Positions 3,978 through 61,020 of a stretch of 64,000 bases of DNA are shown here, piece by piece. The notes beneath the pieces are model-generated. The model had not been told where the DNA came from. It ran no database searches and saw only the letters and a list, made by a program, of their open reading frames with translations. The stretch comes from Patescibacteria group bacterium (lineage in GTDB: Bacteria > Patescibacteriota > Minisyncoccia > Phycocordibacterales > Phycocordibacteraceae): NCBI GenBank assembly GCA_018826905.1, contig JAHJYC010000004.1, forward strand, positions 141,717-205,716. Direction: 5' to 3'. How positions within the stretch are numbered: position 1 is the first letter of the stretch; every line of letters begins with the position of its first letter. Made by a program: the position numbers and the translations under genes.

Positions 3978-6404
3978 CTACTGTGCTGGGGCATTAGTTG
4001 CAGACTCATTAAGGGATCCTTGTGGAATTCCAAGTGCTCCAAGGCGCGATGGTGGGAATGGGTTTCTTCCCTGGCGAAGTGCTGCGAGATCAGCTGCAAT
4101 TGCTTCTTCATTCTCAGGTGAAAGTGCGGCAACTGTTTCAAGCTCTGCAATAGCCCTGTCATACTGGCCACTGATACCGTACATAACTCCTAGGAAGAAA
4201 CGGGCATTAGCATACTGAGGATTCAGTTCAACAGAGCGTGCAAGTGCCTGAATTGCTCCAGGATTATCTCCGTTTGCTGATCGCAAGATTCCTACCTGGA
4301 AAAGTACTACAGGGTCATTCGGTGCGAAGTACGCTGCGGCTTCAGCTGCCTCAAGTGCTTCACGTGCACGGCCCTGTTGCACTGCGAGCTGTGAGAGCAA
4401 GAAGATTGCCTCAGTGTAATCACGCTTTAGGTTAATTGCTTGCATAAGGTTCTCCTCAGCTGCTTCTGCATTTTCGTTTGCAATCTCAAGCTGAGCGAGA
4501 ACAAATGGAAGTGTTGGGTTTGTTGGGTTAAGCGCAACTGCTCTATCGTATGCAGCCTTAGCATTGTCATACGCACCTTCAATGTTAAGTGGCACAACTG
4601 TCTGGTACACGTTTCCAAGGATTGCCCAATTCTGATAGTTGTTTGGGCCAAGTCTTGTCGCAGTGAGTGCTGCTTCAATACTTCCAGAGAGTGCCTGCTG
4701 GAACTGTTGCTGTGCATCTGCAGCGGCTAGCGTGCTATCTGATGCAATGGTGTTCATACGAGCAATTCCAACACCTGCAGCAAGCTGGTATGCGCGATCT
4801 GAAGGAGCAAACAGTATTGAGCGTGCAATATCTGCTTCTGCTTCTTCTAGGTTTCCAGAAGAAAGCGCAACGGTTGCTTCAGTGTATGCAACTCCTGCAA
4901 GGTAACGCTCAATAACAACGTACGCTGCAACGATAGAGGCAAGGAGAAGCAGTGTAAGCCCAAAAACGATAATGAATCCGATGCGTGGACTGCGCGCGAA
5001 GATAACTCCCCACTCCCGAGCATTCGTTCCATAACGGAGCGAAGACACAAAGAGTCCGACTAGCAAGAACCCAGCAAGCAAAACAAGTGGTCCAGGGACG
5101 TTAAATATCGCAAGCGCAAGCACGTACAGCACTCCTGTGAAAGAAGCTGCTGAGACAAACCGCACAAACGGATCCTGTGGCATGCGCAGAAGGAGCGCAC
5201 GAAGACCAAAGAACAGGAAGAGACCAATGAAACCAAGCCATGCAAGTGCTCCTACAAGTCCTGTAGTAACAAAAGACGACGGAATGAAGCCAATGCCTGA
5301 CGTAAAGTCTATGTTCCAGAAGATGGTGTCGTTTAGACTCCTGTCTTTAAACTGAATCCACTGAGCGCCAAATGTTCCAGGCCCTGAACCAAAGAGCGGA
5401 GAGGAAGCATAGGTATGCCCTCCAATATCAAAGGTTGATTGCCATGATGGACGAACATCAACAACACTTGTTCCAAGTGCTGATACAAGCGCATTTCCAA
5501 TTGTTGATCCTCCAATGAGGAAGAAAAGTGAGATGGCGAGTACTGCGAGAGGTGCCGCGAGCGAGCTTGATGCACCTGCCTCCTCTTCAGTCTCAGTCTC
5601 AGCGAGCATGAGTGCAACTCCATCTAAATCAGAATCGTCTGCCATAGGACGACGACGCATAATCGCTTCAATAAAGAGCGCAAGCGAAACGAGCGCAATG
5701 AGAGACCACACAACTGCTGAGTTCACGAGAGCGAGCATCAAGAGACCGAGTCCTCCTCCTATAAGAAGGAGCGTGCGCTTTCGTCCGGTAACTGCAAGTA
5801 GACGAAGTGCTAGGAGGATCACGGTAACACCGAGTCCCACGAACATACCGAAGTCAGCAAATGAGCCGATTAGGTTTGTTGTCGGTGAGATAAAGCTTGG
5901 TGCAATGCGTCCAAGGACAAGAATCAGTACCTGCGCAACAAGCGTAATACCGAATACAAATGAACTTACCTTAAAGAAGGTCTGATAGCTCTGAGTGCGT
6001 CGGAACGCGAGGGCCGTAAGCGTTGCGAGCATTGCGAGAATCAATACAAAGCCAAACGTGTCTGTCTCAAGTTCAGTTCCGAAGAATCCGTTCTGAATTC
6101 CCACTCCTGAAAACAAAGATGAGAACAGATAAGCAAGCGGTACGAGCCAGAGTGCTCCAAGAAGTGGTAGTGGAGGCACAATCACATTGCCACGAGTAAG
6201 ACGCGCAAGAATGAAGAGCGCTAGCGTAACAAGTGCTCCGAGAGCAATGATAGTTACTTTCGTGTAAAGGAACGGAATTGTAATAACAGGGATAAAGGCG
6301 ACAACGCTTATTGCAAGCGTAAGAACTGCTGCCCAACTTGTGGCAACATCAAATGACAAACGCTTTGTGCGCGCCGGTCGTACTCCAGATGAATTCTCGT
6401 GCAT
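3978..6404 (-). CDS. Polytopic membrane protein with an O-antigen ligase/Wzy-like core and a C-terminal TPR repeat domain.
   Basis: 808 aa. The N-terminal ~550 aa carry about 10 TM helices of Wzy_C type. The C-terminal ~250 aa contain several TPR-like repeats (AYDRAVALNP..., ALARSVELNPQYANARFFLGVMYGISGQYDRAIAEL). Confidence 0.55.
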   Translation of the reverse strand: MHENSSGVRPARTKRLSFDVATSWAAVLTLAISVVAFIPVITIPFLYTKVTIIALGALVTLALFILARLTRGNVIVPPLPLLGALWLVPLAYLFSSLFSGVGIQNGFFGTELETDTFGFVLILAMLATLTALAFRRTQSYQTFFKVSSFVFGITLVAQVLILVLGRIAPSFISPTTNLIGSFADFGMFVGLGVTVILLALRLLAVTGRKRTLLLIGGGLGLLMLALVNSAVVWSLIALVSLALFIEAIMRRRPMADDSDLDGVALMLAETETEEEAGASSSLAAPLAVLAISLFFLIGGSTIGNALVSALGTSVVDVRPSWQSTFDIGGHTYASSPLFGSGPGTFGAQWIQFKDRSLNDTIFWNIDFTSGIGFIPSSFVTTGLVGALAWLGFIGLFLFFGLRALLLRMPQDPFVRFVSAASFTGVLYVLALAIFNVPGPLVLLAGFLLVGLFVSSLRYGTNAREWGVIFARSPRIGFIIVFGLTLLLLASIVAAYVVIERYLAGVAYTEATVALSSGNLEEAEADIARSILFAPSDRAYQLAAGVGIARMNTIASDSTLAAADAQQQFQQALSGSIEAALTATRLGPNNYQNWAILGNVYQTVVPLNIEGAYDNAKAAYDRAVALNPTNPTLPFVLAQLEIANENAEAAEENLMQAINLKRDYTEAIFLLSQLAVQQGRAREALEAAEAAAYFAPNDPVVLFQVGILRSANGDNPGAIQALARSVELNPQYANARFFLGVMYGISGQYDRAIAELETVAALSPENEEAIAADLAALRQGRNPFPPSRLGALGIPQGSLNESATNAPAQ

Positions 6405-13756: not shown

Positions 13757-13864
13757 GTGCTCAGTTGGTAGGTTAGAGAATTCTTCTCCAGGTTACCGAC
13801 TGCGCACTGACACCATATACGGTGTGCATCTAATAAAAGTATTTAACATCTAATCATTATTGCT

Positions 13865-15781
13865 ATGTCAGCACCCGCACCAGCGCCAGCGCCTGCCCCT
13901 CAAGGCCGCGCACCGCGCTCAGAAAGTAGCCAAGGACCACGCCCAGAGAGGCGTACTGACGGCCCTCGCCCTCCTCAAGCACGAGGAAAGGAGACAGGTC
14001 CTCGCAGAGCCCGTCCAGCGAATCGCACTATGCGACGACCTGGAGGCGCTCAAGGAGGCACCCCCACCGTTAAGAAGGCTCCTGACTACTTCCCGGAAGC
14101 TCCTGGAAAGGACGTCGTTCGCGTCGTTCCTCTTGGAGGAGTTGAGGAGGTGGGACGAAACATGTTTACCATTGAAGCCAATGGAGACATCTTTGTGTTT
14201 GACGTCGGATTCCAGTTCGTGTCTGAGGACACTTCTCCCGGCGTTGACTACGTCCTTCCAAACACTCGGTACCTTGAAATGAACAAGGATCGTATTCGTG
14301 GCGTGTTCATCACACACGGACACCTTGACCACATTGGAGGTATTCCCTTCCTCATGAACCGCATGGGGAACCCAACAATCTACACGCAGAATCTTTCTGC
14401 AGTGATGATCAAAAAGCGACAGGAAGAATATCCTGATCAACCAGAACTCAATATCGTAACGGTTGAGCCTGGGTCAACGATGACCATTGGGTCAACGAAA
14501 GTGCAGTTCTTCCCTGTAACACACTCAATCCCTGATTCAATGGGTATTGCTATAAGTACTCCATACGGAAACGTTATTGCTACAGGAGACCTTAAGCTTG
14601 ATCATGAGAACGGTATTCCTACTGAGACTGAAGCCAAGAAATGGGGAGCACTTGGAAAACAGAAGAACCTCCTCTTTATTGCAGACTCAACAAACGCAGA
14701 GCGTGACGGATTCTCCGTACCAGAGCGCAAAGTTCATGAGACTCTTGAAGAGATTATTAGGACCGTCAAAGGACGTTTGATAATCGGTACATTTGCTTCT
14801 CAGTTTGAGCGCATGGTCCGTATCATTGAAATCTCTGAAGCTCTTGGAAAGAAAGTAATTACTGAGGGACGCTCTATTAAGACGAACTTGGAAATTGCAC
14901 AGAAGACAGGTCTTCTTACTGTTAAGAAGGACACTATCATTAGCTCCCAAGAGATCGGAGATTATCCTCCAGACAAAATTGTTATCCTTTCAACAGGAGC
15001 ACAGGGAGAGGAGTTTGCGGCGCTCATGCGTATTGCAACCAAGCAGCACAAGAGCATCACACTTAATTCTCGCGACACAATTGTGCTCTCTTCTTCCGTT
15101 ATTCCTGGAAACGAGATTTCAGTACAGAAGCTGAAAGACAACTTGTACCGCAACGGCGTTACGTTGATTCACTACCGCTCAAGCGATGTGCACTCAACAG
15201 GGCACGGAAATACTGGCGAACTTATCTGGATTAACCAGCAAGTGAACGCAAAGTACTTCATGCCTGCGTACGGGTACTACTCAATGACAGCGAGCCATGC
15301 TCGCGCAGTTGAACAGGCAGGACGTCCTCGCGAATCAATCATTCTTGCTGATAACGGAATGGTTATTGATATTGAGGAGAACGGCGAGAAGCTCAATTAC
15401 CACAAGCAAAAAGTTCCCTCTACACCACTCGTGGTTGATGGATTCTCCATTGGAGATCTTCAAGAGGTGGTAATTCGTGATCGCCAGATGCTTGCTAAGG
15501 ACGGCATGTTCGTTATCATCGCAACGGTTAACCTAAAGACCGGGAAACTCAGGAAGTCACCGGATATTATCTCTCGCGGATTCGTGTACCTCCGTGAAAA
15601 TCAGGAGATGCTCAATCAAGCACGACTTCTTATCAAGAAGACCGTTGAGGATTCAACTGAGGGAATGAATCCTGTTGATCTTGATTACGTTAAGAATGCA
15701 CTCTCAGATACTATGGCTGGCTACTTGTTCACTAGAACAAACAAAGCACCAATGGTGATCCCTGTTCTTATCGGAGTGTAA
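13865..15781 (+). CDS. rnj: Ribonuclease J (metallo-beta-lactamase plus beta-CASP RNase), carrying a ~80-aa Pro/Arg/Gly-rich N-terminal extension.
   Basis: HGHLDHIGG (the HxHxDH motif), beta-CASP motifs, and an RNase J C-terminal domain. The N-terminus MSAPAPAPAPAPQGRAPRSESSQGPRPERRTDGPRPPQARGKETGPRRARPANRTMRRPGG is low complexity. Confidence 0.9.
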   Translation: MSAPAPAPAPAPQGRAPRSESSQGPRPERRTDGPRPPQARGKETGPRRARPANRTMRRPGGAQGGTPTVKKAPDYFPEAPGKDVVRVVPLGGVEEVGRNMFTIEANGDIFVFDVGFQFVSEDTSPGVDYVLPNTRYLEMNKDRIRGVFITHGHLDHIGGIPFLMNRMGNPTIYTQNLSAVMIKKRQEEYPDQPELNIVTVEPGSTMTIGSTKVQFFPVTHSIPDSMGIAISTPYGNVIATGDLKLDHENGIPTETEAKKWGALGKQKNLLFIADSTNAERDGFSVPERKVHETLEEIIRTVKGRLIIGTFASQFERMVRIIEISEALGKKVITEGRSIKTNLEIAQKTGLLTVKKDTIISSQEIGDYPPDKIVILSTGAQGEEFAALMRIATKQHKSITLNSRDTIVLSSSVIPGNEISVQKLKDNLYRNGVTLIHYRSSDVHSTGHGNTGELIWINQQVNAKYFMPAYGYYSMTASHARAVEQAGRPRESIILADNGMVIDIEENGEKLNYHKQKVPSTPLVVDGFSIGDLQEVVIRDRQMLAKDGMFVIIATVNLKTGKLRKSPDIISRGFVYLRENQEMLNQARLLIKKTVEDSTEGMNPVDLDYVKNALSDTMAGYLFTRTNKAPMVIPVLIGV

Positions 15782-43686: not shown

Positions 43687-44082
43687 CTACTCGTCTGCTC
43701 GCAAATCTAGCAACACCCTCCCCTTCTTAGAGATTGGATCCAAGCACTCCTTTTTAAATGCGGCATGCTCTTGGTTTATTTGGACATCTGGGTCACCAGT
43801 CCTATAGGGCTCACGTGCTTCATTAAGCCCAATCAAGTAATAGGAACCATCCTCCCCCTCAAAAAGGGTTACCACCTCCCGCGTTACATTTTCATAGTTA
43901 AATGTTGCGATAGCTTCTTCACGTCTTCCGGTCGCAAGTGTCTCCATCCACGCCAGAACTCTTTCCAACTTCCCGGCCTTTACCCTGAATAGTTTAGAAA
44001 AATGCATATAGGGACAGTATACAATGAGCAATTTCTCCTCTTGAAAAGAGGGTTTAAAAGTGGCATTGTGTATGCAGAGCAT
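43687..44082 (-). CDS. Hypothetical protein (possibly a small alpha+beta domain); the true start may be the internal Met MHFSKL.
   Basis: 131-aa ORF. Confidence 0.35.
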   Translation of the reverse strand: MLCIHNATFKPSFQEEKLLIVYCPYMHFSKLFRVKAGKLERVLAWMETLATGRREEAIATFNYENVTREVVTLFEGEDGSYYLIGLNEAREPYRTGDPDVQINQEHAAFKKECLDPISKKGRVLLDLRADE

Positions 44083-44115
44083 TCATGGTGAGTGCTCTTT
44101 GAAAGGAACAGACTG

Positions 44116-44610
44116 ATGCAAAGTATCGTCCTTTCCGGCCCCGCAGCGGGAACTGTTCCTGCGGGACTGCTCGCGAAGCTCGCGCTGATCGATTCCCTCG
44201 ATCTCTCGCGGGCCCAGGAGCGCATGTCCGTTGACTTTCCCGGAAGCGAAGCCTCGTTCGAAGAGGTGTCCGTGGAGGTGAAGCGGTTCCTCGCCCTGGC
44301 TGTTCTCGAGCGCGATCCGGGCCACCGCATCGTGATCGGCGAAAAGATCGACGGGCTGTGGCACTACTTCATCCTGCACACCCGCGAATACCGGGACTTC
44401 TGTGCGGATGTCTTCGGCGCCTACCTGCACCACGTTCCGATTCTCCCGTCGGAGAAACCGGATCTGGCCGCAGACTACCAGAAGACGCGAGACCTCTACC
44501 GCACCTACTTCGGCGAGCCGCCTGTCCATCTCTGGGGCGACGGCGACATGATCTGCTGGGGCGGGTGTGACGAGGTTCGCGACGACGAACCCATCACCAA
44601 ACTGAACTGA
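44116..44610 (+). CDS. DUF1399-like (glycine-rich-domain-containing-protein-like) protein, encoded by a clearly GC-richer, horizontally acquired gene.
   Basis: The motif LWHYFILHTREYRDFCADVFG is the signature block of DUF1399/GRDP-like proteins. A Shine-Dalgarno sequence AAAGGAA sits 7 nt upstream of the ATG at 44116. Third-codon positions are almost all G/C, unlike neighbouring genes. Confidence 0.55.
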   Translation: MQSIVLSGPAAGTVPAGLLAKLALIDSLDLSRAQERMSVDFPGSEASFEEVSVEVKRFLALAVLERDPGHRIVIGEKIDGLWHYFILHTREYRDFCADVFGAYLHHVPILPSEKPDLAADYQKTRDLYRTYFGEPPVHLWGDGDMICWGGCDEVRDDEPITKLN

Positions 44611-44622
44611 TCTACGGATCAC

Positions 44623-44675
44623 ACGCTTGTCTATAAAGTGCCGAAAGGCATTTCGTAGACAAGCGTTTTACTTTA
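44623..44675. terminator. Long nested hairpin ACGCUUGUCUA-[UAAAGUGCC-GAAA-GGCAUUUCG]-UAGACAAGCGU followed by UUUUACUUUAUC; a bidirectional terminator between convergent genes.
   Basis: A perfect 11-bp outer stem with an inner stem capped by a GAAA tetraloop. It lies right after the DUF1399 stop and overlaps the stop of the downstream minus-strand gene. Confidence 0.55.
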
Positions 44676-45587
44676 TCTAAAGTAAACTGATCCACTATCA
44701 AACTTCAGATTCAACACTAGTTCTCCTTTTGAGGTAAACAAATACTCTCCGGTATTCTCTAGGATCTTCCTGAAGTCTGCTTCCTGGGATCCTTCACAAT
44801 ACATTAGTGTTGATACCATCTCACTGAAACGTATCGTTGATTCTGTAGCCGTGTACTTTCCTCCAACACCGTTACAGTCGGTAGCCGCCCCGAATGTTCC
44901 GTCATTCTTGAATGTCAGTGTGAATACATCCCTGTTCGGAGTAACAACTGTTCCGTCATTGTATTCAGCACGTACCCACTCCCATGTCTTCATGGTGAGG
45001 CTCATTCTGTTTGGGTCAGCCTCTCCTTCAAAATTCTGTTCTACTACGCCAAACTGTAGCGCGACAGGATCAAGCTTGAGCCACACACTTCTCCCAACAG
45101 AAGGCTGGGCTGTCATTGGTTCTCCAGGCGCACGATCCATGTAGTTCACCACAATGACATTTTGATGACCTGGGTTCTGACTAAGTTCAGTACTCTGTGG
45201 TGCAATTCTGTCTCCCAGTACGTATGCCTCTGAACCAACATAGCCCTCTTCCGTATTGAGTGCTGCGACTACGTAATAGAACGTACCTGACCCCCTGCCC
45301 TCTTGAGTAAGAACGAACACAACATCCTCTCGTCCGTCATTATCCAAATCAGCACTGATCTCATTGCCAAAATAACGAGTAACACTCTTTGAAGCAGACC
45401 CTGGGGCTGATTGTGTCTCTGCAATACCATCCTGAAGCTTTACACGTTGTCCTTCAATAATATATTCGGCATTCTTGTAGTCAGTTGCCGTATCTACCTG
45501 CTTCTCATTGTAAATATAGGAATTAAGAGCAAAGAACCCTGCAATAAGCAGTGCTACAGCTACAAGCGCAGTAAGAATCCATTTCAT
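44673..45587 (-). CDS. Membrane-anchored protein with a Gmad2-like N-terminal region and a C-terminal META/HslJ-like (DUF306) domain.
   Basis: N-terminal block shared with 39324..39902. The C-terminal MVSTLMYCEGSQEADFRKILENTGEYLFTSKGELVLNL resembles the META domain. Confidence 0.45.
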   Translation of the reverse strand: MKWILTALVAVALLIAGFFALNSYIYNEKQVDTATDYKNAEYIIEGQRVKLQDGIAETQSAPGSASKSVTRYFGNEISADLDNDGREDVVFVLTQEGRGSGTFYYVVAALNTEEGYVGSEAYVLGDRIAPQSTELSQNPGHQNVIVVNYMDRAPGEPMTAQPSVGRSVWLKLDPVALQFGVVEQNFEGEADPNRMSLTMKTWEWVRAEYNDGTVVTPNRDVFTLTFKNDGTFGAATDCNGVGGKYTATESTIRFSEMVSTLMYCEGSQEADFRKILENTGEYLFTSKGELVLNLKFDSGSVYFR

Positions 45588-55290: not shown

Positions 55291-57597
55291 ATGCCCGATT
55301 ACAATTTCCAAACCCTTAACGATAGAGAGTTTGAGAGGTTAACTCGTGATTTATTGCAAAAGGAAACAGGTCTTACGTTCGAGAGTTTTAAACCTGGGCG
55401 TGATGGGGGTATAGATTTACGCCATTCCTCTCCAACAGAAGATGTGACTACTATTGTTCAGGCAAAGCATCGAGTCCGAGCCAGCTATAAGGATCTTTTG
55501 TATGACCTCAGCAAGACTGAGCTACCAAAAGTTAAGAAGCTGGAGCCCTCACGTTACATATTAGTAACTAGTGTTGAATTTAATCCCGCCCAAAAGAAAG
55601 AACTGAAGAATCTTTTTGCTCCCTATGTTCTTACGACTGGAGATATCCTTGGTAGAGATGACTTAAACGGACTGCTCGGAAAATTTTCTGAAATTGAAGA
55701 GAAGCATCCAAAACTATGGTTATCGAGTATTCCTATACTTAATAAGATTGTAAATAACGGTATAAAGGGCCGTTCTGATTTTACAGACGAAGTGATTAGA
55801 AAGAACGTAAGCCTATATGTAGCCAATGAAACATATGCCGAGGCTCTTGAAATTCTTAACGAAGAACAATTTCTTGTAATAGTTGGGGAACCGGGAATCG
55901 GAAAGACGGTTCTTGCAAAAATGCTTATTTATCAGTTGCTTGGAAACGACTACAGACTCGTGACTGTAACAGAAAAGATCTCCGAAGCAGAAGATTTGTG
56001 GGAACCTGAACAGAAACAAGTGTTTTATTTCGATGATTTTCTTGGAGCCAACTACTTAGAAATAGCTCAGTATCATAACGGTGATTCAGCCCTAGTGAAC
56101 TTTATAGCCCGAATAAAATTAGATCCTCTTAAACGTCTTATGCTGACGAGCAGGACTGCAGTTTTGAACCAAGCGGCTCAGGTTTATCCGCGTCTAGAAG
56201 CACCCGGGCTTGAGCTGGCGCGGCACGAAGTAAAAATTGAGGACTACTCAAAGCTAGACAAGGCTCAGATTTTGTATAACCACCTTTACTTTCTAGGTTT
56301 GGGAGAAGATTACAAGCAAAAGGTAAAAGAAGACAAGAATTACTGGAAAATTATAAAGCACAAAAACTATAATCCGCGCCTGATTGAGTTCATTTCTGAC
56401 CCACTGAGACTGAAGGAGGTACCGCCTGAAGATTATATGGGTTTTATACAGGAGAGACTGGATAATCCTGCGGACATATGGAAGCAAGCATATTTACATC
56501 AGACGGACGACTACTGTAAATTCTTGATTCAATCGCTATTTTCTCTTGGCGAAAAAGTTCCCGAACGAATTCTAAAGAGAGCATTTAATGCGCGTTTAGA
56601 CTACGAAATAGAGCACAATGGCTTTCGAAGAGAAGCAGATGTTTATGCATTGCGTCTCAAGCATTTAATGGGCGGATTCTTAAAGGCAGTCAGGCACGGG
56701 GAGAATGTTTATCTCAGTTTCTTTAACCCTTCTATTACAGACTTCTTGTTGCACTACTTAAGTGAGAATAAAGATGAGAAGTGGCGAATACTTAACTCTG
56801 TGATTTTTACATCACAACTTACAAATCGCTTTATAACCAGTAAAGATTCATTGCTCGCGTTCGTCGAGGACGAAATATCGCCACTTGAAGCACTTATATC
56901 GAGAAGAGCTGACGACCTGGTAGACCCAGAAGGCGGATCCAGAGATATAGAGCTACTACACTTTTATTACTTTGCCTTCCCTGTTGATCTTATTGATACT
57001 AAATCTGCACCTATTTTAGAACGCTTGGATCTAGATGAAGCTTTACCATCACAGTTTGATGCATTGCTATCAACTCTTGATGCACTTCAAACATACGACG
57101 AGTCAATTCGGATAGTTAAGAGTCGCTTTCGTGAAATTATAAATTATCTTTTTAGTTCTGATACCGGCGGGAGAAAACTTAGTTCTATCAAGAAGCTTTT
57201 CAAGGCCTACGATGAAAGTTATGAGGAATATATTGCTGACGAGAATAGCCGAACTATTGTTGAATCAGCATTAACCCGACACTGGGGCGAGCGAATTAGC
57301 GATATAGAGGCCGGGCAAGATTCAGACGTTGCGGAATTTGGCACTTCTTCTGAGATTGAGACTTTCATAGGAGAAATTCAAGAGGACGGGAGGCAATATA
57401 ATAGGAGTTTTGGGTTCGCTGAACTGCGAATAATGGAAAGTTTCGAAGATATAGATTATGACGAGATTGCAAGATCCTCAAGAGAGCGTGCACAAATAGA
57501 AGACTATATGTCCGACTACCATGCAGAGGAATATTATTCTGAGCGTTCTGAACCTCAAAGAAACGAGAATGCGGAAATAGACGAATTATTTCAATAA
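55291..57597 (+). CDS. Mrr-like PD-(D/E)xK restriction-endonuclease domain fused to a STAND-like P-loop NTPase and a helical C-terminal region (Avs/AVAST-like architecture).
   Basis: The N-terminus FERLTRDLLQKETGLTFESFKPGRDGGIDLRHS...IVQAKH gives a D...(Q)xK Mrr_cat-like pattern. Walker A is GEPGIGKT and Walker B is VFYFDDFLG (hhhhDD, STAND type). A C-terminal ~400-aa alpha-helical region ends in an acidic, Tyr-rich tail. Confidence 0.55.
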   Translation: MPDYNFQTLNDREFERLTRDLLQKETGLTFESFKPGRDGGIDLRHSSPTEDVTTIVQAKHRVRASYKDLLYDLSKTELPKVKKLEPSRYILVTSVEFNPAQKKELKNLFAPYVLTTGDILGRDDLNGLLGKFSEIEEKHPKLWLSSIPILNKIVNNGIKGRSDFTDEVIRKNVSLYVANETYAEALEILNEEQFLVIVGEPGIGKTVLAKMLIYQLLGNDYRLVTVTEKISEAEDLWEPEQKQVFYFDDFLGANYLEIAQYHNGDSALVNFIARIKLDPLKRLMLTSRTAVLNQAAQVYPRLEAPGLELARHEVKIEDYSKLDKAQILYNHLYFLGLGEDYKQKVKEDKNYWKIIKHKNYNPRLIEFISDPLRLKEVPPEDYMGFIQERLDNPADIWKQAYLHQTDDYCKFLIQSLFSLGEKVPERILKRAFNARLDYEIEHNGFRREADVYALRLKHLMGGFLKAVRHGENVYLSFFNPSITDFLLHYLSENKDEKWRILNSVIFTSQLTNRFITSKDSLLAFVEDEISPLEALISRRADDLVDPEGGSRDIELLHFYYFAFPVDLIDTKSAPILERLDLDEALPSQFDALLSTLDALQTYDESIRIVKSRFREIINYLFSSDTGGRKLSSIKKLFKAYDESYEEYIADENSRTIVESALTRHWGERISDIEAGQDSDVAEFGTSSEIETFIGEIQEDGRQYNRSFGFAELRIMESFEDIDYDEIARSSRERAQIEDYMSDYHAEEYYSERSEPQRNENAEIDELFQ

Positions 57598-57658
57598 CCA
57601 TTTATCCCCTTCCCGGTTTACTAGACTTCCCGGCGGTATCCAGTATGTTCGTGTCTGT

Positions 57659-58987
57659 ATGGAGACAACAATGCTCTATGGAGCTCAGACAGCCGCCCCG
57701 GCACACCAAGCAGCGGTTACCGTCAGATACTGCCTGTATGCCCGTAAATCGAGCGAGGCAGAGGAGCGACAGGCGCTTTCGATAGATTCTCAGGTTAACG
57801 AGATGTTGGCCCTAGCCCAGCGAGAGGGACTGACAATTGTCGACATGTACCGAGAATCTCACTCGGCCAAGGATTGCGGGCAACGGCCAGTATTCAACCA
57901 ACTCCTCACAGACATACGCGAGGGTAAGTTTGACGGAATCCTCGCATGGCACCCTGACCGACTCTCTCGCAACGCCGGGGACCTCGGAGCTATCGTTGAC
58001 CTCTTTGATCAGAAGAAGCTTCTTGAGATACGTACCCATAGTCAGCGATTCACGAATAACCCGAATGAGAAATTCCTTCTCATGATTCTCGGCTCTCAAG
58101 CCAAGCTCGAGAATGACAACAAGAGCATTAATGTGAAGCGCGGACTCAAGACTAAATGCGAGCTTGGGCTTTGGCCTTCAGTAGCGCCAACTGGATACCT
58201 CAACTCCAAGAATAAGGACCAGAAAGGAGTCGTATTCGTGGATCCGGACCGAGCACCAATCATCAAAGAACTATTCAACAAAGTAGCCAATGAAGGATGG
58301 AGCGGACGGAAGATCTACCGCTGGCTCAAAGATATAAAGTTCCTCACTCGCACCGGCAAGCCCCTTACACTCAGCAATGTCTACTGTATTCTCAACAATC
58401 ACTTCTATCACGGTTCATTTGAGTACCCAAAGAACAGCGGTCGGTGGTTCCTGGGCAAACATACTCCGCTCATATCCAAAGAGCTCTTTGATGATGTTCA
58501 GAAACAGCTCCATTTACAGATTAGAGCTCCTAATCGAAATAAGGAGTTCGCTTTCACCCGCCTTCTCTCATGTGGCACATGTGAATCTGGCGTAACAGCA
58601 CAGGAGAAGTTTAAGAGTTTGAAAGACGGATCGATCGCTAAATATATTTATTACGGATGTACGCGTGCGCGGAATATTAACTGTAAGGAGGGCTACATCG
58701 AGGAGAGGGTTCTCATCTCTCAATTAACTGTAATCATTGACCAAATCGACCTTGATCGCTCAGGTATTAAAAAGAAGCTTGAACTTGAGATTGAGCGTCA
58801 CAAGAAATTTCACTCAGGAATTATGGGCAAAACCGACGAAGAGTACTTCGCCAAAGATGCAGACATAAGAAATTACGCTAAGTACCTCCTTACCGAGGGT
58901 TCTATCTTTGAGAAGCGTGACTTACTCACCTGTCTGAAAAGCAAACTTCTTCTAAAGGAAAAGATAATATCTACAACCAGTACCTAG
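57659..58987 (+). CDS. Large serine recombinase (resolvase/invertase catalytic domain plus recombinase domain plus zinc-ribbon domain).
   Basis: The N-terminal resolvase motif YARKSS...Q...SIDSQ carries the catalytic Ser. The length of 442 aa and the Cys cluster CGTCESGVT...YYGCTRARNINC (zinc ribbon) are typical of LSR integrases. Confidence 0.8.
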   Translation: METTMLYGAQTAAPAHQAAVTVRYCLYARKSSEAEERQALSIDSQVNEMLALAQREGLTIVDMYRESHSAKDCGQRPVFNQLLTDIREGKFDGILAWHPDRLSRNAGDLGAIVDLFDQKKLLEIRTHSQRFTNNPNEKFLLMILGSQAKLENDNKSINVKRGLKTKCELGLWPSVAPTGYLNSKNKDQKGVVFVDPDRAPIIKELFNKVANEGWSGRKIYRWLKDIKFLTRTGKPLTLSNVYCILNNHFYHGSFEYPKNSGRWFLGKHTPLISKELFDDVQKQLHLQIRAPNRNKEFAFTRLLSCGTCESGVTAQEKFKSLKDGSIAKYIYYGCTRARNINCKEGYIEERVLISQLTVIIDQIDLDRSGIKKKLELEIERHKKFHSGIMGKTDEEYFAKDADIRNYAKYLLTEGSIFEKRDLLTCLKSKLLLKEKIISTTST

Positions 58988-58993
58988 GAATGA

Positions 58994-60850
58994 TTAGGAG
59001 AAATTAAATTCGTCTTCCTGGAGAGCCTGGTCGACGAAAGTAAAGATTTCTTCAAAAGCCGTTATCGTAGTTTTGCTTAAGTCATCTTTCTTAATCTGTT
59101 TTTTCTTTGCCTTTTCCAAGAACAGTTTTGCAAAGATGTTTTTTCGACTCTTTCCTATATATGAAACGTTATCTTTCTTTTGGGGCTTAGGAGCTAGAGC
59201 AAAGTTCTTTGAACCGCCCGCGATTGTTTGTATATCACTTATCGAAAATAGTTCTTCGATATCAGACACATCGAGGGTCTTAACTTTCTTTTCCGCTCGG
59301 GTCTTGTCTCCAGCAAAAATACCCTCCTTAAGATCATCGAACTTGGCTTGACCGACTGGCTCGCCATCAATTACCACACACCACTTCAAATTGTACCCAA
59401 TACAGATCCCTACAAGAGGGTTCAATTTACTCCCCAATGCCCCAACTCCAGGGATAAGAGCGTAGTCCAATTTCTTTCCAAGAACAATTGCCATTGCTTG
59501 CAAATGCATGTAATCACTTACACCTTCAAGAATTACATTTTTCTCTTTGAAGATGAGATTCTGGTGCGGTACGTCGCAGCCGATTGCGTAGTTAACAAGA
59601 GACATTGCCTCCTGCTTATTCTTAGAATTTCCAATTTGAGTCTTAAGGATATTCTCACAGAGTGTGCCTTGATCCTTATCGTTAAAAACAAGAGCCACAC
59701 GATAGATGGTCTCTAATGGAACTAGAGTCGGTGCATGCGTCGTGTAAAGTATCTGGTGACCGAATTTACCACTAATTTTCTCAAAGACTTTAAGGAGGTC
59801 TTTTTGAGCATTTATGTGAAGGCTTCTATCAGGTTCATCCACCAAAATTATGGCCTTCTTTTCTTTTAATGATTTTAGTGCCAACCAGAAAGATAGGAAC
59901 CAGATCATTCCCTGGCTGCGCATTCTAACTGGTAGTTCTTTCCCTTCTTTGGTCCTAACAGCAAAGTCGATATAGTTCTTTTCAACTTCATCCTCTTTCT
60001 CTTTTCTCTTTTCGATATTAAAAACCAACCCAAGTTTATCGTTCTCAATCCCGTGAAGTTTTTGAGAAAAGTCATTTTTCAGGTCGGCAGTAATATCAGA
60101 AATTCGTTTATTGGTTTCATCAAGGCGACGAATGGAAGGCGTCTCTGCAAGAGACTTGAAGGTAAAATCTGCATTCCCAGTAAGCTCCTGGAGACAAGCT
60201 TCCAACCATGTGACCGAAACCCAGCCATCTCCAGTTTCTTCCACCAGATCATCAATTGATATGAAATCTGGAAGCGTATCGCAAGTCCCTCCTTCAAAAA
60301 ATATAAACTCCGGAATGATGTTATCTACAATGAACTTTCCTACATCTGGGGTAAGGATAGAAGCGTCAAACTCTTCTTCATTTTCATCGGCATCTTCCTC
60401 AGCCTCTACCGATGCTGCACCGGTAGACTCGACCTCAAGGTTATTAATTAAGGCATTCTGAAAAGTTGTATCCAATGAGTAGTTCTTTCCATCAAAAGTA
60501 AGAGTAAAATTTGAAATACGGCTTATGGTATTTGGCTTAAATGCCACAACCTCCTTGAATATTTCCTCGTTCGCGAAATTCTCGATTTCATCTAGAATCG
60601 CAGGCTTATCATCAGCTGCCTCGAAAGAAAACTGACATGAGACAACTTGATCAAGCCCTGCTGGGGATTCATACGGGTAGGAGTCCCCATCAAACTCACC
60701 ATTATAAAAATCTCTCAGGGCCTCTAAGATGCTTGATTTCCCCGATTCATTCTGTCCGATCAGAGACAGAATATTGTCACTTTGACCCAAATCAACCTCT
60801 ACCCTAACGATAGATTTGTAGTTGTGAATCTCAACCTTATCTAGCTTCAT
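58994..60850 (-). CDS. OLD-family nuclease (N-terminal ABC-type ATPase plus C-terminal TOPRIM domain); a stand-alone Class-1-like gene.
   Basis: Walker A is GQNESGKSS. The Q-loop, signature and Walker B are present (AIILVDEPDRSLH), and a TOPRIM-like VILEGVSDYMHL...VVIDGE follows. There is no adjacent UvrD-like partner gene. Confidence 0.75.
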   Translation of the reverse strand: MKLDKVEIHNYKSIVRVEVDLGQSDNILSLIGQNESGKSSILEALRDFYNGEFDGDSYPYESPAGLDQVVSCQFSFEAADDKPAILDEIENFANEEIFKEVVAFKPNTISRISNFTLTFDGKNYSLDTTFQNALINNLEVESTGAASVEAEEDADENEEEFDASILTPDVGKFIVDNIIPEFIFFEGGTCDTLPDFISIDDLVEETGDGWVSVTWLEACLQELTGNADFTFKSLAETPSIRRLDETNKRISDITADLKNDFSQKLHGIENDKLGLVFNIEKRKEKEDEVEKNYIDFAVRTKEGKELPVRMRSQGMIWFLSFWLALKSLKEKKAIILVDEPDRSLHINAQKDLLKVFEKISGKFGHQILYTTHAPTLVPLETIYRVALVFNDKDQGTLCENILKTQIGNSKNKQEAMSLVNYAIGCDVPHQNLIFKEKNVILEGVSDYMHLQAMAIVLGKKLDYALIPGVGALGSKLNPLVGICIGYNLKWCVVIDGEPVGQAKFDDLKEGIFAGDKTRAEKKVKTLDVSDIEELFSISDIQTIAGGSKNFALAPKPQKKDNVSYIGKSRKNIFAKLFLEKAKKKQIKKDDLSKTTITAFEEIFTFVDQALQEDEFNFS

Positions 60851-60930
60851 GATGCCCTCATTTTACTACTGTCTGGTGGAAGTTCCACCCCGGACAGGGA
60901 TAGTGGCAATTAGGGACCCGTCTAGGTCCT

Positions 60931-60951
60931 TCGATACTTTTCTAGACTGCT
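60931..60951 (+). repeat. Right direct repeat TCGATACTTTTCTAGACTGCT (attR-like), abutting and overlapping the 3' end of tRNA-Gln by 2 nt.
   Basis: See the left repeat. It lies immediately 3' of the tRNA gene on the tRNA strand. Confidence 0.6.
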
Positions 60952-61020
60952 GCGGGACTAGGACTCGAACCTAGATAGACGGTACCAGAAACCGTAGTCC
61001 TACCATTAGACGATCCCGCA
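60950..61020 (-). tRNA. tRNA-Gln (anticodon CUG).
   Basis: The minus-strand sequence UGCGGGAUCGUCUAAUGGUAGGACUACGGUUUCUGGUACCGUCUAUCUAGGUUCGAGUCCUAGUCCCGCAG folds as a cloverleaf with a U1:A72 pair (typical of tRNA-Gln), an ACGGU/ACCGU anticodon stem, loop UUCUGGU, and a GGUUCGAGUCC T-arm. No CCA is encoded. Confidence 0.85.

Follow-up and report, generated by a model that had tools for sequence, protein, structure and literature searches.

The best described relatives of the gene studied here are plant proteins, the glycine-rich-domain-containing proteins (GRDPs). Plant GRDP1 and GRDP2 combine two DUF1399 domains (Pfam PF07173) with a glycine-rich domain, and the single biochemical lead comes from cotton, where GRDP1 binds UDP-L-rhamnose synthase and activates it (PMC13001069). 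The literature that we found on this superfamily covers only the plant GRDPs. Here, a bacterial relative was analyzed that lies in a stretch of 64,000 nucleotides from a Patescibacteria group bacterium (GenBank assembly GCA_018826905.1, contig JAHJYC010000004.1, positions 141,717 to 205,716), referred to as the window throughout. The gene occupies positions 44116..44610 of the plus strand (ATG at 44116, TGA at 44608-44610), encodes 164 amino acids plus stop and is assigned to PF27765 (UCP032817-like); we call it the UCP gene. It is conspicuously GC-rich. We consider it probable that this member of an uncharacterised family belongs to an accessory cassette with its own terminator, and that the cassette was horizontally acquired long ago. 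The locus would then be a tidy example of a reduced Patescibacteria genome that took up DNA horizontally in the distant past.

The relation of the product to the plant proteins was analyzed by profile searches. PF27765 is the precomputed Pfam assignment of the exact window protein and of all 26 close homologues. The first-pass annotation, a reading of the DNA letters alone, had placed the product in DUF1399 because of the block GLWHYFILHTREYRDFC, which is indeed present. However, the window protein did not match PF07173 (gathering threshold 22.7 bits) even at E ≤ 1, and none of 10 short superfamily members tested matched this model. An hmmscan against a Pfam set without the PF27765 model returned no family at E ≤ 1, and NCBIfam likewise gave none. 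Membership in the DUF1399/GRDP-like family was dropped for lack of a match, but the motif does mark a distant superfamily kinship that is traceable via intermediates. The profile of the window family (A1) matched the proteins P0033, P0035, P0038, P0041, P0102 and P0106 with E-values of 1e-20 to 1e-28. These are long multi-domain proteins that also pass PF07173 (25-47 bits), only over model positions of about 94-143, and at least one of these PF07173 stretches overlaps the region matched by A1. Because the long A1 matches also pass PF07173 in the same region, PF27765 is shown, as judged from protein sequence, to be a distant sister of the GRDP-like/DUF1399 domain.

A WH...H...Y...(D/F)C block is common to both families. 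In contrast to the plant GRDPs, the window protein has a single domain and lacks the glycine-rich tail. With PF27765 it shares the length (the family is bacterial, with about 150-180 amino acids) and the conserved core D-x2-WH-x3-LHT-x2-Y-x2-FC ... YLHH-x-P ... ICWGGC. Four residues of the UCP protein, D79, H83, Y92 and H106, are invariant across the superfamily. Its own close subfamily is tiny. In a set of 5.8 billion proteins, only 26 close relatives (47-88% identity) were found. When the family profile was run against 1.84 billion cluster representatives, it matched 10,480 superfamily clusters at E ≤ 1e-3, of which only 8 remained at E ≤ 1e-30. Plasmids also carry UCP-like proteins that are more distantly related (26-42% identity). 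Many of these are encoded on megaplasmids of Ralstonia solanacearum (119 records), others on plasmids of Rhizobium, Streptomyces and Pseudomonas savastanoi. All are listed as hypothetical, apart from one annotated as a TIGR04222-domain membrane protein. The annotated neighborhoods of distant relatives on Rhizobium, Pseudomonas and Ralstonia replicons were heterogeneous, with every protein hypothetical.

Composition was computed for the UCP gene and its surroundings. The gene has a GC content of 0.62 and a GC content at third codon positions (GC3) of 0.78, while the window as a whole has a GC content of 0.469 and 17 neighboring long open reading frames (ORFs) have a GC3 of 0.43 ± 0.04 (maximum 0.54). 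The gene thus lies about 8 standard deviations above its neighbors. At four-fold degenerate sites its GC content is 0.82 versus a background of 0.34, and the third positions carry C in 48% and G in 30% of codons. The GC step falls at both ends of the coding sequence. Amino acid composition was rejected as the cause, as the GC3 predicted from the protein's own amino acids and host codon usage is 0.42. The strong compositional outlier noticed on first reading was therefore recovered by calculation, although "G or C at nearly every third position" overstates a real skew of 78%.

The gene also looks expressible. A Shine-Dalgarno-like AAAGGA, read from the sequence, is located at 44102..44107 (plus strand), 8 nt upstream of the ATG, and the ribosome-binding sites of relatives read AAAGGA, GGGAG or AAAGAG. 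Comparisons of the UCP gene between loci gave nonsynonymous divergence (dN) of 0.14-0.23 where synonymous divergence (dS) exceeded 1. As 26 homologues share a conserved core and dN is far below dS in the sense frame, the ORF 44116-44610 is established on comparative grounds as a genuine protein-coding gene.

On the opposite strand, an ORF of 179 codons (44083..44622, minus strand) is open across the entire UCP gene. One automatic gene caller, that of the Logan assembly, annotated this antisense ORF (179 amino acids; 5386-5925 of Logan contig L005) wrongly in place of the UCP gene. That it is a real gene, or the second gene of a dual-coding locus, is nevertheless scarcely credible. Stops in the antisense frame correspond to sense TTA, CTA and TCA codons. 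The window copy has none of these, and the same is true for the homologues at L009, L017 and L021 (homologous loci carry L numbers). One such codon was counted in L013, 4 in L010, 5 in L007 and 19 in L008. Thus, only the most GC-rich copies keep the antisense frame open, and it is not conserved. Moreover, differences between the window and L025 in the UCP gene number 12/14/84 at sense codon positions 1/2/3, so that 84 of 110 fall at the third position of sense codons, the first position of antisense ones. All conservation at the protein level, and the Pfam assignment with it, belongs to the sense frame. The antisense gene was ruled out by the stops in relatives and by this substitution pattern, and the ORF is a by-product of GC-rich third positions, as the first reading had held.

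An abrupt change in GC content could also arise if a high-GC fragment from a contaminant had been joined into a Patescibacteria contig, and one assembly of the population (GCA_018828265.1) does break beside the UCP gene. However, this break sits inside a palindromic hairpin downstream of the gene, and both fragments bear the expected junctions. The end of L003 joins the META gene, the downstream neighbor, to one hairpin arm, and the start of L006 joins the UCP gene to the DUF6176 and MgtE genes on its other side. The gap is therefore an assembler effect at the palindrome and not a junction problem. The same junctions were found in GCA_018826595.1 (376-kb contig JAHJYZ010000001.1, labelled "Patescibacteria group bacterium") and in part in GCA_018828265.1, and the Logan assembly made independently from SRR10598221 covers the whole region. 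An identical UCP protein is encoded on five contigs, and no assembly of the population lacks it. Since, in addition, the arrangement of DUF6176, UCP gene and terminator recurs in unrelated samples, a chimera is excluded for practical purposes, and we assign it only a negligible probability. The locus carries a warning for annotation, with one pipeline calling a spurious antisense ORF and one assembler breaking at the terminator palindrome.

The first-pass annotation had treated the UCP gene as a lone gene. In contrast to this, it is one half of a conserved two-gene arrangement. Divergent from it lies a gene for a 106-residue DUF6176 protein (43687..44007, minus strand; Pfam E 2e-13), whose GC3 of 0.49 is near the host value. 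The 108 nt between the two (44008..44115) presumably contain the promoters of both genes; a promoter scan of this region found no sigma-70 consensus. The same divergent pair was found in L025, L009, L010-12, L013-16 and in an Allosphingosinicella metagenome-assembled genome (MAG; L007/L020), with a spacer of 97-123 nt in five cassette copies. A tandem version is present in a Saccharibacteria MAG (L008) and in L022. In total, DUF6176 is a neighbor at 8 of 12 loci examined, which represent 7 distinct loci. The closest homologues of the UCP protein (88, 79, 78 and 73% identity) are encoded on contigs of 46-52% GC.

The outer flanks all differ: MgtE and META in the window, genes for LysRS and a histidine-kinase-like protein in L013, a diversity-generating retroelement and AhpC in L010 and a 501-residue serine recombinase in L007. 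When contigs were compared with the window for host relatedness, only the cassette genes were common to both. Similarity between the window and L025 at the nucleotide level starts at the DUF6176 stop codon and stops just past the hairpin. Because the similarity is bounded in this way, the extent of the cassette was set to about 43687-44676. Distances between DUF6176 proteins and between UCP proteins rank broadly alike across loci, and window and L025 differ at the same proportion of four-fold sites in both genes (0.57), which argues that the two genes evolved together. DUF6176 and UCP are thereby shown, from comparison of loci, to form a conserved cassette of about 990 bp. A pairing of PF27765 with DUF6176 was not found described in the literature. 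The repeated pairing offers an initial hint, from genomic context, about two families without known function, one of which, PF27765, is a bacterial relative of the plant GRDP domain linked to stress and seed size.

Several neighborhoods of these loci are recorded as observations in their own right. In L010 (536-2692; also in L011 and L012) the cassette adjoins the diversity-generating retroelement, consisting of bAvd and a reverse transcriptase. In L017 (3604-8847) the UCP gene is located between dnaJ and dnaK-grpE, and DnaJ is encoded within a few kb of the UCP gene in L013 (8961-10034) and L022 (1279-2328). The window neighbor META is HslJ-like. The DnaJ/DnaK vicinity may reflect a stress-gene neighborhood or mere shared synteny.

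The UCP side of the cassette ends in a hairpin that starts 12 nt past the UCP stop codon (44623..44666, plus strand). A 12-bp outer stem (44623-44634/44655-44666; 11 Watson-Crick pairs and one G-U pair) is followed by a 1x1 internal loop and a 7-bp inner stem (44636-44642/44647-44653) that is closed by a GAAA loop. Folding of 63 nt gave a ΔG of -29.1 kcal/mol (z = -7.4), a stability that was not reached by any of 200 shuffled sequences. A T-rich tail (TTTACTTTAT; also written UUUACUUUAU) follows directly at 44667..44676. The convergent META gene has its stop codon (44673-44675) within this tail, and a small A/T hairpin (44667-44686) overlaps the tail with one of its arms. The structure resembles intrinsic terminators in its stable stem-loop near a stop codon, its T-rich tract, its convergent-gene setting and in covariation that keeps the stem. 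It differs from the textbook form in a longer stem of 19 pairs with an internal loop and in an interrupted T-tract. A simple consensus terminator scan missed the hairpin at 44623-44666.

In L025 and L009 the hairpin is kept, and 4 of 18 pairs show compensatory double changes among these two sequences and the window. The loop differs between the three (GAAA, 9 nt and 6 nt). Loci L007, L008, L010, L013, L017, L021 and L022 have stable hairpins of their own after the UCP stop codon, most of them followed by a T-run. Judged by predicted structure and covariation, the element at 44623-44676 is an intrinsic (Rho-independent) terminator that belongs to the cassette. The first reading had regarded the nested GAAA hairpin as striking. 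It is present where it was reported, but it is not special. Its loop is not conserved, long-stem hairpins at gene ends are common in this window and it ranks third in length among 57 inverted repeats. A repeated element of the REP or MITE type was ruled out, as the sequence is unique in the window.

A second, tentative hairpin (AGAGCAUUCA-UGG-UGAGUGCUCU) was noted in the 5' leader of the UCP gene (44076..44098, plus strand), ending 3 nt upstream of the ribosome-binding site. Hairpins at the matching position are found in five cassettes (window, L025, L009, L010 and L013) with stems that differ in sequence; AGAGCA/UGCUCU, GAGCA/UGCUC, GAAGG/CCUUC and GGAU/AUCC were seen among them. Singly, these hairpins are not significant (z -0.2 to -2.0). 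Covariation is suggestive by eye but weak in an automatic alignment, which gave one compensatory pair, and the hairpin may be a leader element. Rfam had no match for either the terminator hairpin or the 5' leader.

The distribution of the cassette was used to address its origin. Close relatives of the UCP protein occur in 2 of 185,579 species genomes, and these belong to different phyla (one Allosphingosinicella, one Saccharibacteria). The adjacent META gene, on the other hand, has 4,749 homologues, many with 60-77% identity, and those with an organism label are from Patescibacteria, Parcubacteria or Minisyncoccia. No cassette is present within 8 kb of the META orthologues in L032 and L033 (71-77% identity). 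The Allosphingosinicella copy (L007), in a MAG of 60% GC, has a host-like GC content, abuts the 501-residue serine recombinase and is 66% identical to the window protein. Since the cassette is very rare, occupies unrelated chromosomal sites, has one copy beside a serine recombinase and is missing near META in META-bearing relatives, we infer that it is probably an accessory element spread by horizontal transfer. Foreign ancestry would then be the simplest reading of the GC-rich codon usage seen in the UCP gene.

In the window itself, no mobility gene was found within about ± 10 kb of the UCP gene, in agreement with the earlier remark that none flanks it, and no flanking tRNA or direct repeat was found there. 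The nearest serine recombinase gene is at 57659-58987 and the nearest tRNA gene at 60949. Mobility signals were seen at other copies only, namely the serine recombinase of L007 and a possible tRNA end in L025. The latter is a sequence downstream of the L025 cassette terminator (1100-1173; GGGGGACAGGGATTCGAACCC) that resembles the 3' part of a minus-strand tRNA gene. It is situated at the contig end, and ARAGORN made no call. A specific link between the serine recombinase of the window and that of the L007 cassette was rejected, as the two have only generic similarity (28% identity).

The first-pass annotation had favored a different history, in which a single gene came recently from a high-GC donor and had no time to ameliorate. 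The deviation of GC3 from the neighbors and its sharp borders would fit such an event, the codon choice resembles a GC-rich mutational bias and a relative with host-matched GC exists in the Allosphingosinicella MAG. A foreign origin is indeed plausible from the rarity of the subfamily and the atypical GC3, but the parts of this proposal that concern recency and a single gene fail. The search for a donor yielded no near-identical sequence; the closest relative reaches 88% protein identity. The best homologues are found on contigs of intermediate GC with the same cassette and terminator and not in high-GC genomes, and the Allosphingosinicella copy is too distant at 66%. In L025, L009, L010 and L013, the homologue exceeds its partner gene in GC3 in the same way, a pattern that the earlier annotation had itself named as speaking for an ancient acquisition. 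Because window and L025 share cassette and terminator and yet differ at 57% of four-fold sites, their common ancestor must be old and the acquisition was not recent. The identical protein in all population assemblies also argues against a recent transfer. Taken together, we regard a recent single-gene transfer as quite improbable. In the old acquisition that we favor, the cassette would have entered before the window lineage parted from, at the least, the nearest relative that has a cassette, and it would since have become fixed in all assemblies of the population.

Some observations weigh against an old import of the whole cassette. Such an import from a high-GC donor predicts that both genes are GC-rich, as is the case in Allosphingosinicella, whereas the DUF6176 partner has the GC3 of 0.49 given above. 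Neither an empty site for comparison nor an insertion scar was found, and the gene order around META is scrambled in relatives. That L009, L010, L013, L017 and L025 represent different hosts rests on flanking genes and GC content only. Pairing is frequent but not obligatory; the UCP genes in L017, L021, L023 and L024 lack DUF6176, and DUF6176 is solitary in L027 and L030. The contigs with solitary DUF6176 have about 39-40% GC and gene neighborhoods in common with the Patescibacteria-type loci L032 and L033. In L027 (4700-4990), a tRNA gene and, after it, two incomplete repeats of the tRNA 3' end lie directly upstream of the solitary DUF6176, and these att-like repeats suggest an integrated element.

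A further point against this reading is quantitative and concerns the persistence of the GC3 difference between the two genes. In five divergent cassettes, UCP GC3 minus DUF6176 GC3 amounts to +0.29, +0.32, +0.35, +0.30 and +0.26, across host four-fold backgrounds of 0.34 to 0.62. Which gene is the compositional outlier varies; it is the UCP gene in the window and DUF6176 in L013. Between cassette copies, synonymous sites approach saturation, and in the four other copies more than half of the four-fold sites differ from the window. We applied a relaxation model, a simple and crude calculation of our own. In this model, the residual four-fold identity of 13-23% corresponds to a decay of the GC deviation to 36-48% per lineage. 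If the GC excess were a remnant of an import before the split of window and L025, the ancestral GC content at four-fold sites would have to exceed 1. A single old transfer followed by simple amelioration is thus at odds with these numbers.

These data could mean that the high GC3 of the UCP gene is actively maintained, by selection at the nucleotide level or by GC-biased gene conversion of a gene prone to recombination, and is not the fading mark of a transfer. The gap has been kept in varied host backgrounds despite near-saturated synonymous sites, and neutral decay would require an impossible ancestral composition. However, no mechanism was found. Selection on mRNA structure was rejected, as the folding of the gene (z -2.47) is not exceptional compared with controls (-1.09 ± 1.38). 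Translational selection is unlikely, as the proxies for highly expressed genes reach a GC3 of only 0.52 (cold-shock protein) and 0.48 (MetK). An antisense product can hardly constrain these positions, as that ORF is not conserved. Furthermore, the bias is not family-wide, since both genes have a host-like composition where the host GC content is 34-38% or 60%. Given also the small sample of five short genes with small backgrounds and the crude model, active maintenance is a possible but doubtful explanation, and old foreign ancestry of the cassette is preferred. Should a larger set of cassettes confirm the gap, this would matter for the reliability with which gene transfers can be dated from anomalous GC3.

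Potential functions of the pair were considered from predicted folds and conserved residues. The UCP product might be a small, mostly helical soluble protein. The four invariant residues named above suggest a catalytic or metal-binding site and provide a short list for mutation. For the DUF6176 partner, a mutarotase-like α+β-barrel fold is predicted, similar to that of the L-rhamnose mutarotase family. The partner was compared with the L-rhamnose/L-fucose mutarotases (RhaM/YiiL, RhaU and FucU-like 7byu) and with dimeric α+β-barrel enzymes of the ABM type, to which it has a sequence identity of 12-13%. In Pfam, only DUF6176 and no mutarotase family profile was matched at E ≤ 1. The UCP protein may act together with the DUF6176 protein on a small molecule. 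A 6-deoxy-sugar would be one substrate lead, because the DUF6176 fold is mutarotase-like and plant GRDP1 activates UDP-rhamnose synthase. An extended proposal sees DUF6176/UCP as a mobile two-protein unit in which UCP GC-richness is selected or recombination-driven, with the pair possibly acting on 6-deoxy-sugars; taken as a whole, we judge this proposal unlikely.

A toxin-antitoxin or anti-phage defence pair was also considered. PADLOC and PHROGs gave no match for either cassette protein. Searches of viral contigs found no relatives, and a phage collection gave three weak partial matches only. As the pair has no such match and no viral association, and as the fold of the partner is enzyme-like, this candidate was rejected.

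Two further features of the window are independent of the cassette. A low-GC island of defence and mobile genes extends from 55291 to 61020, 11-16 kb from the UCP gene. It is composed of a gene for an Mrr-nuclease and nSTAND3 NTPase (55291-57597, GC 0.405), the large serine recombinase gene mentioned above (57659-58987) and an AAA_15/AAA_21 ATPase gene (58994-60850, GC 0.407), and it ends with tRNA-Gln (60949-61020). A local GC bump (13860-14440) coincides with the RNase J gene (13865-15781). Here, a low-complexity N-terminal extension of about 75 residues, rich in Pro, Arg, Gly and Ala, lifts the local GC content and leads to spurious ORFs at 13860-14282 (plus strand) and 13919-14440 (minus strand).

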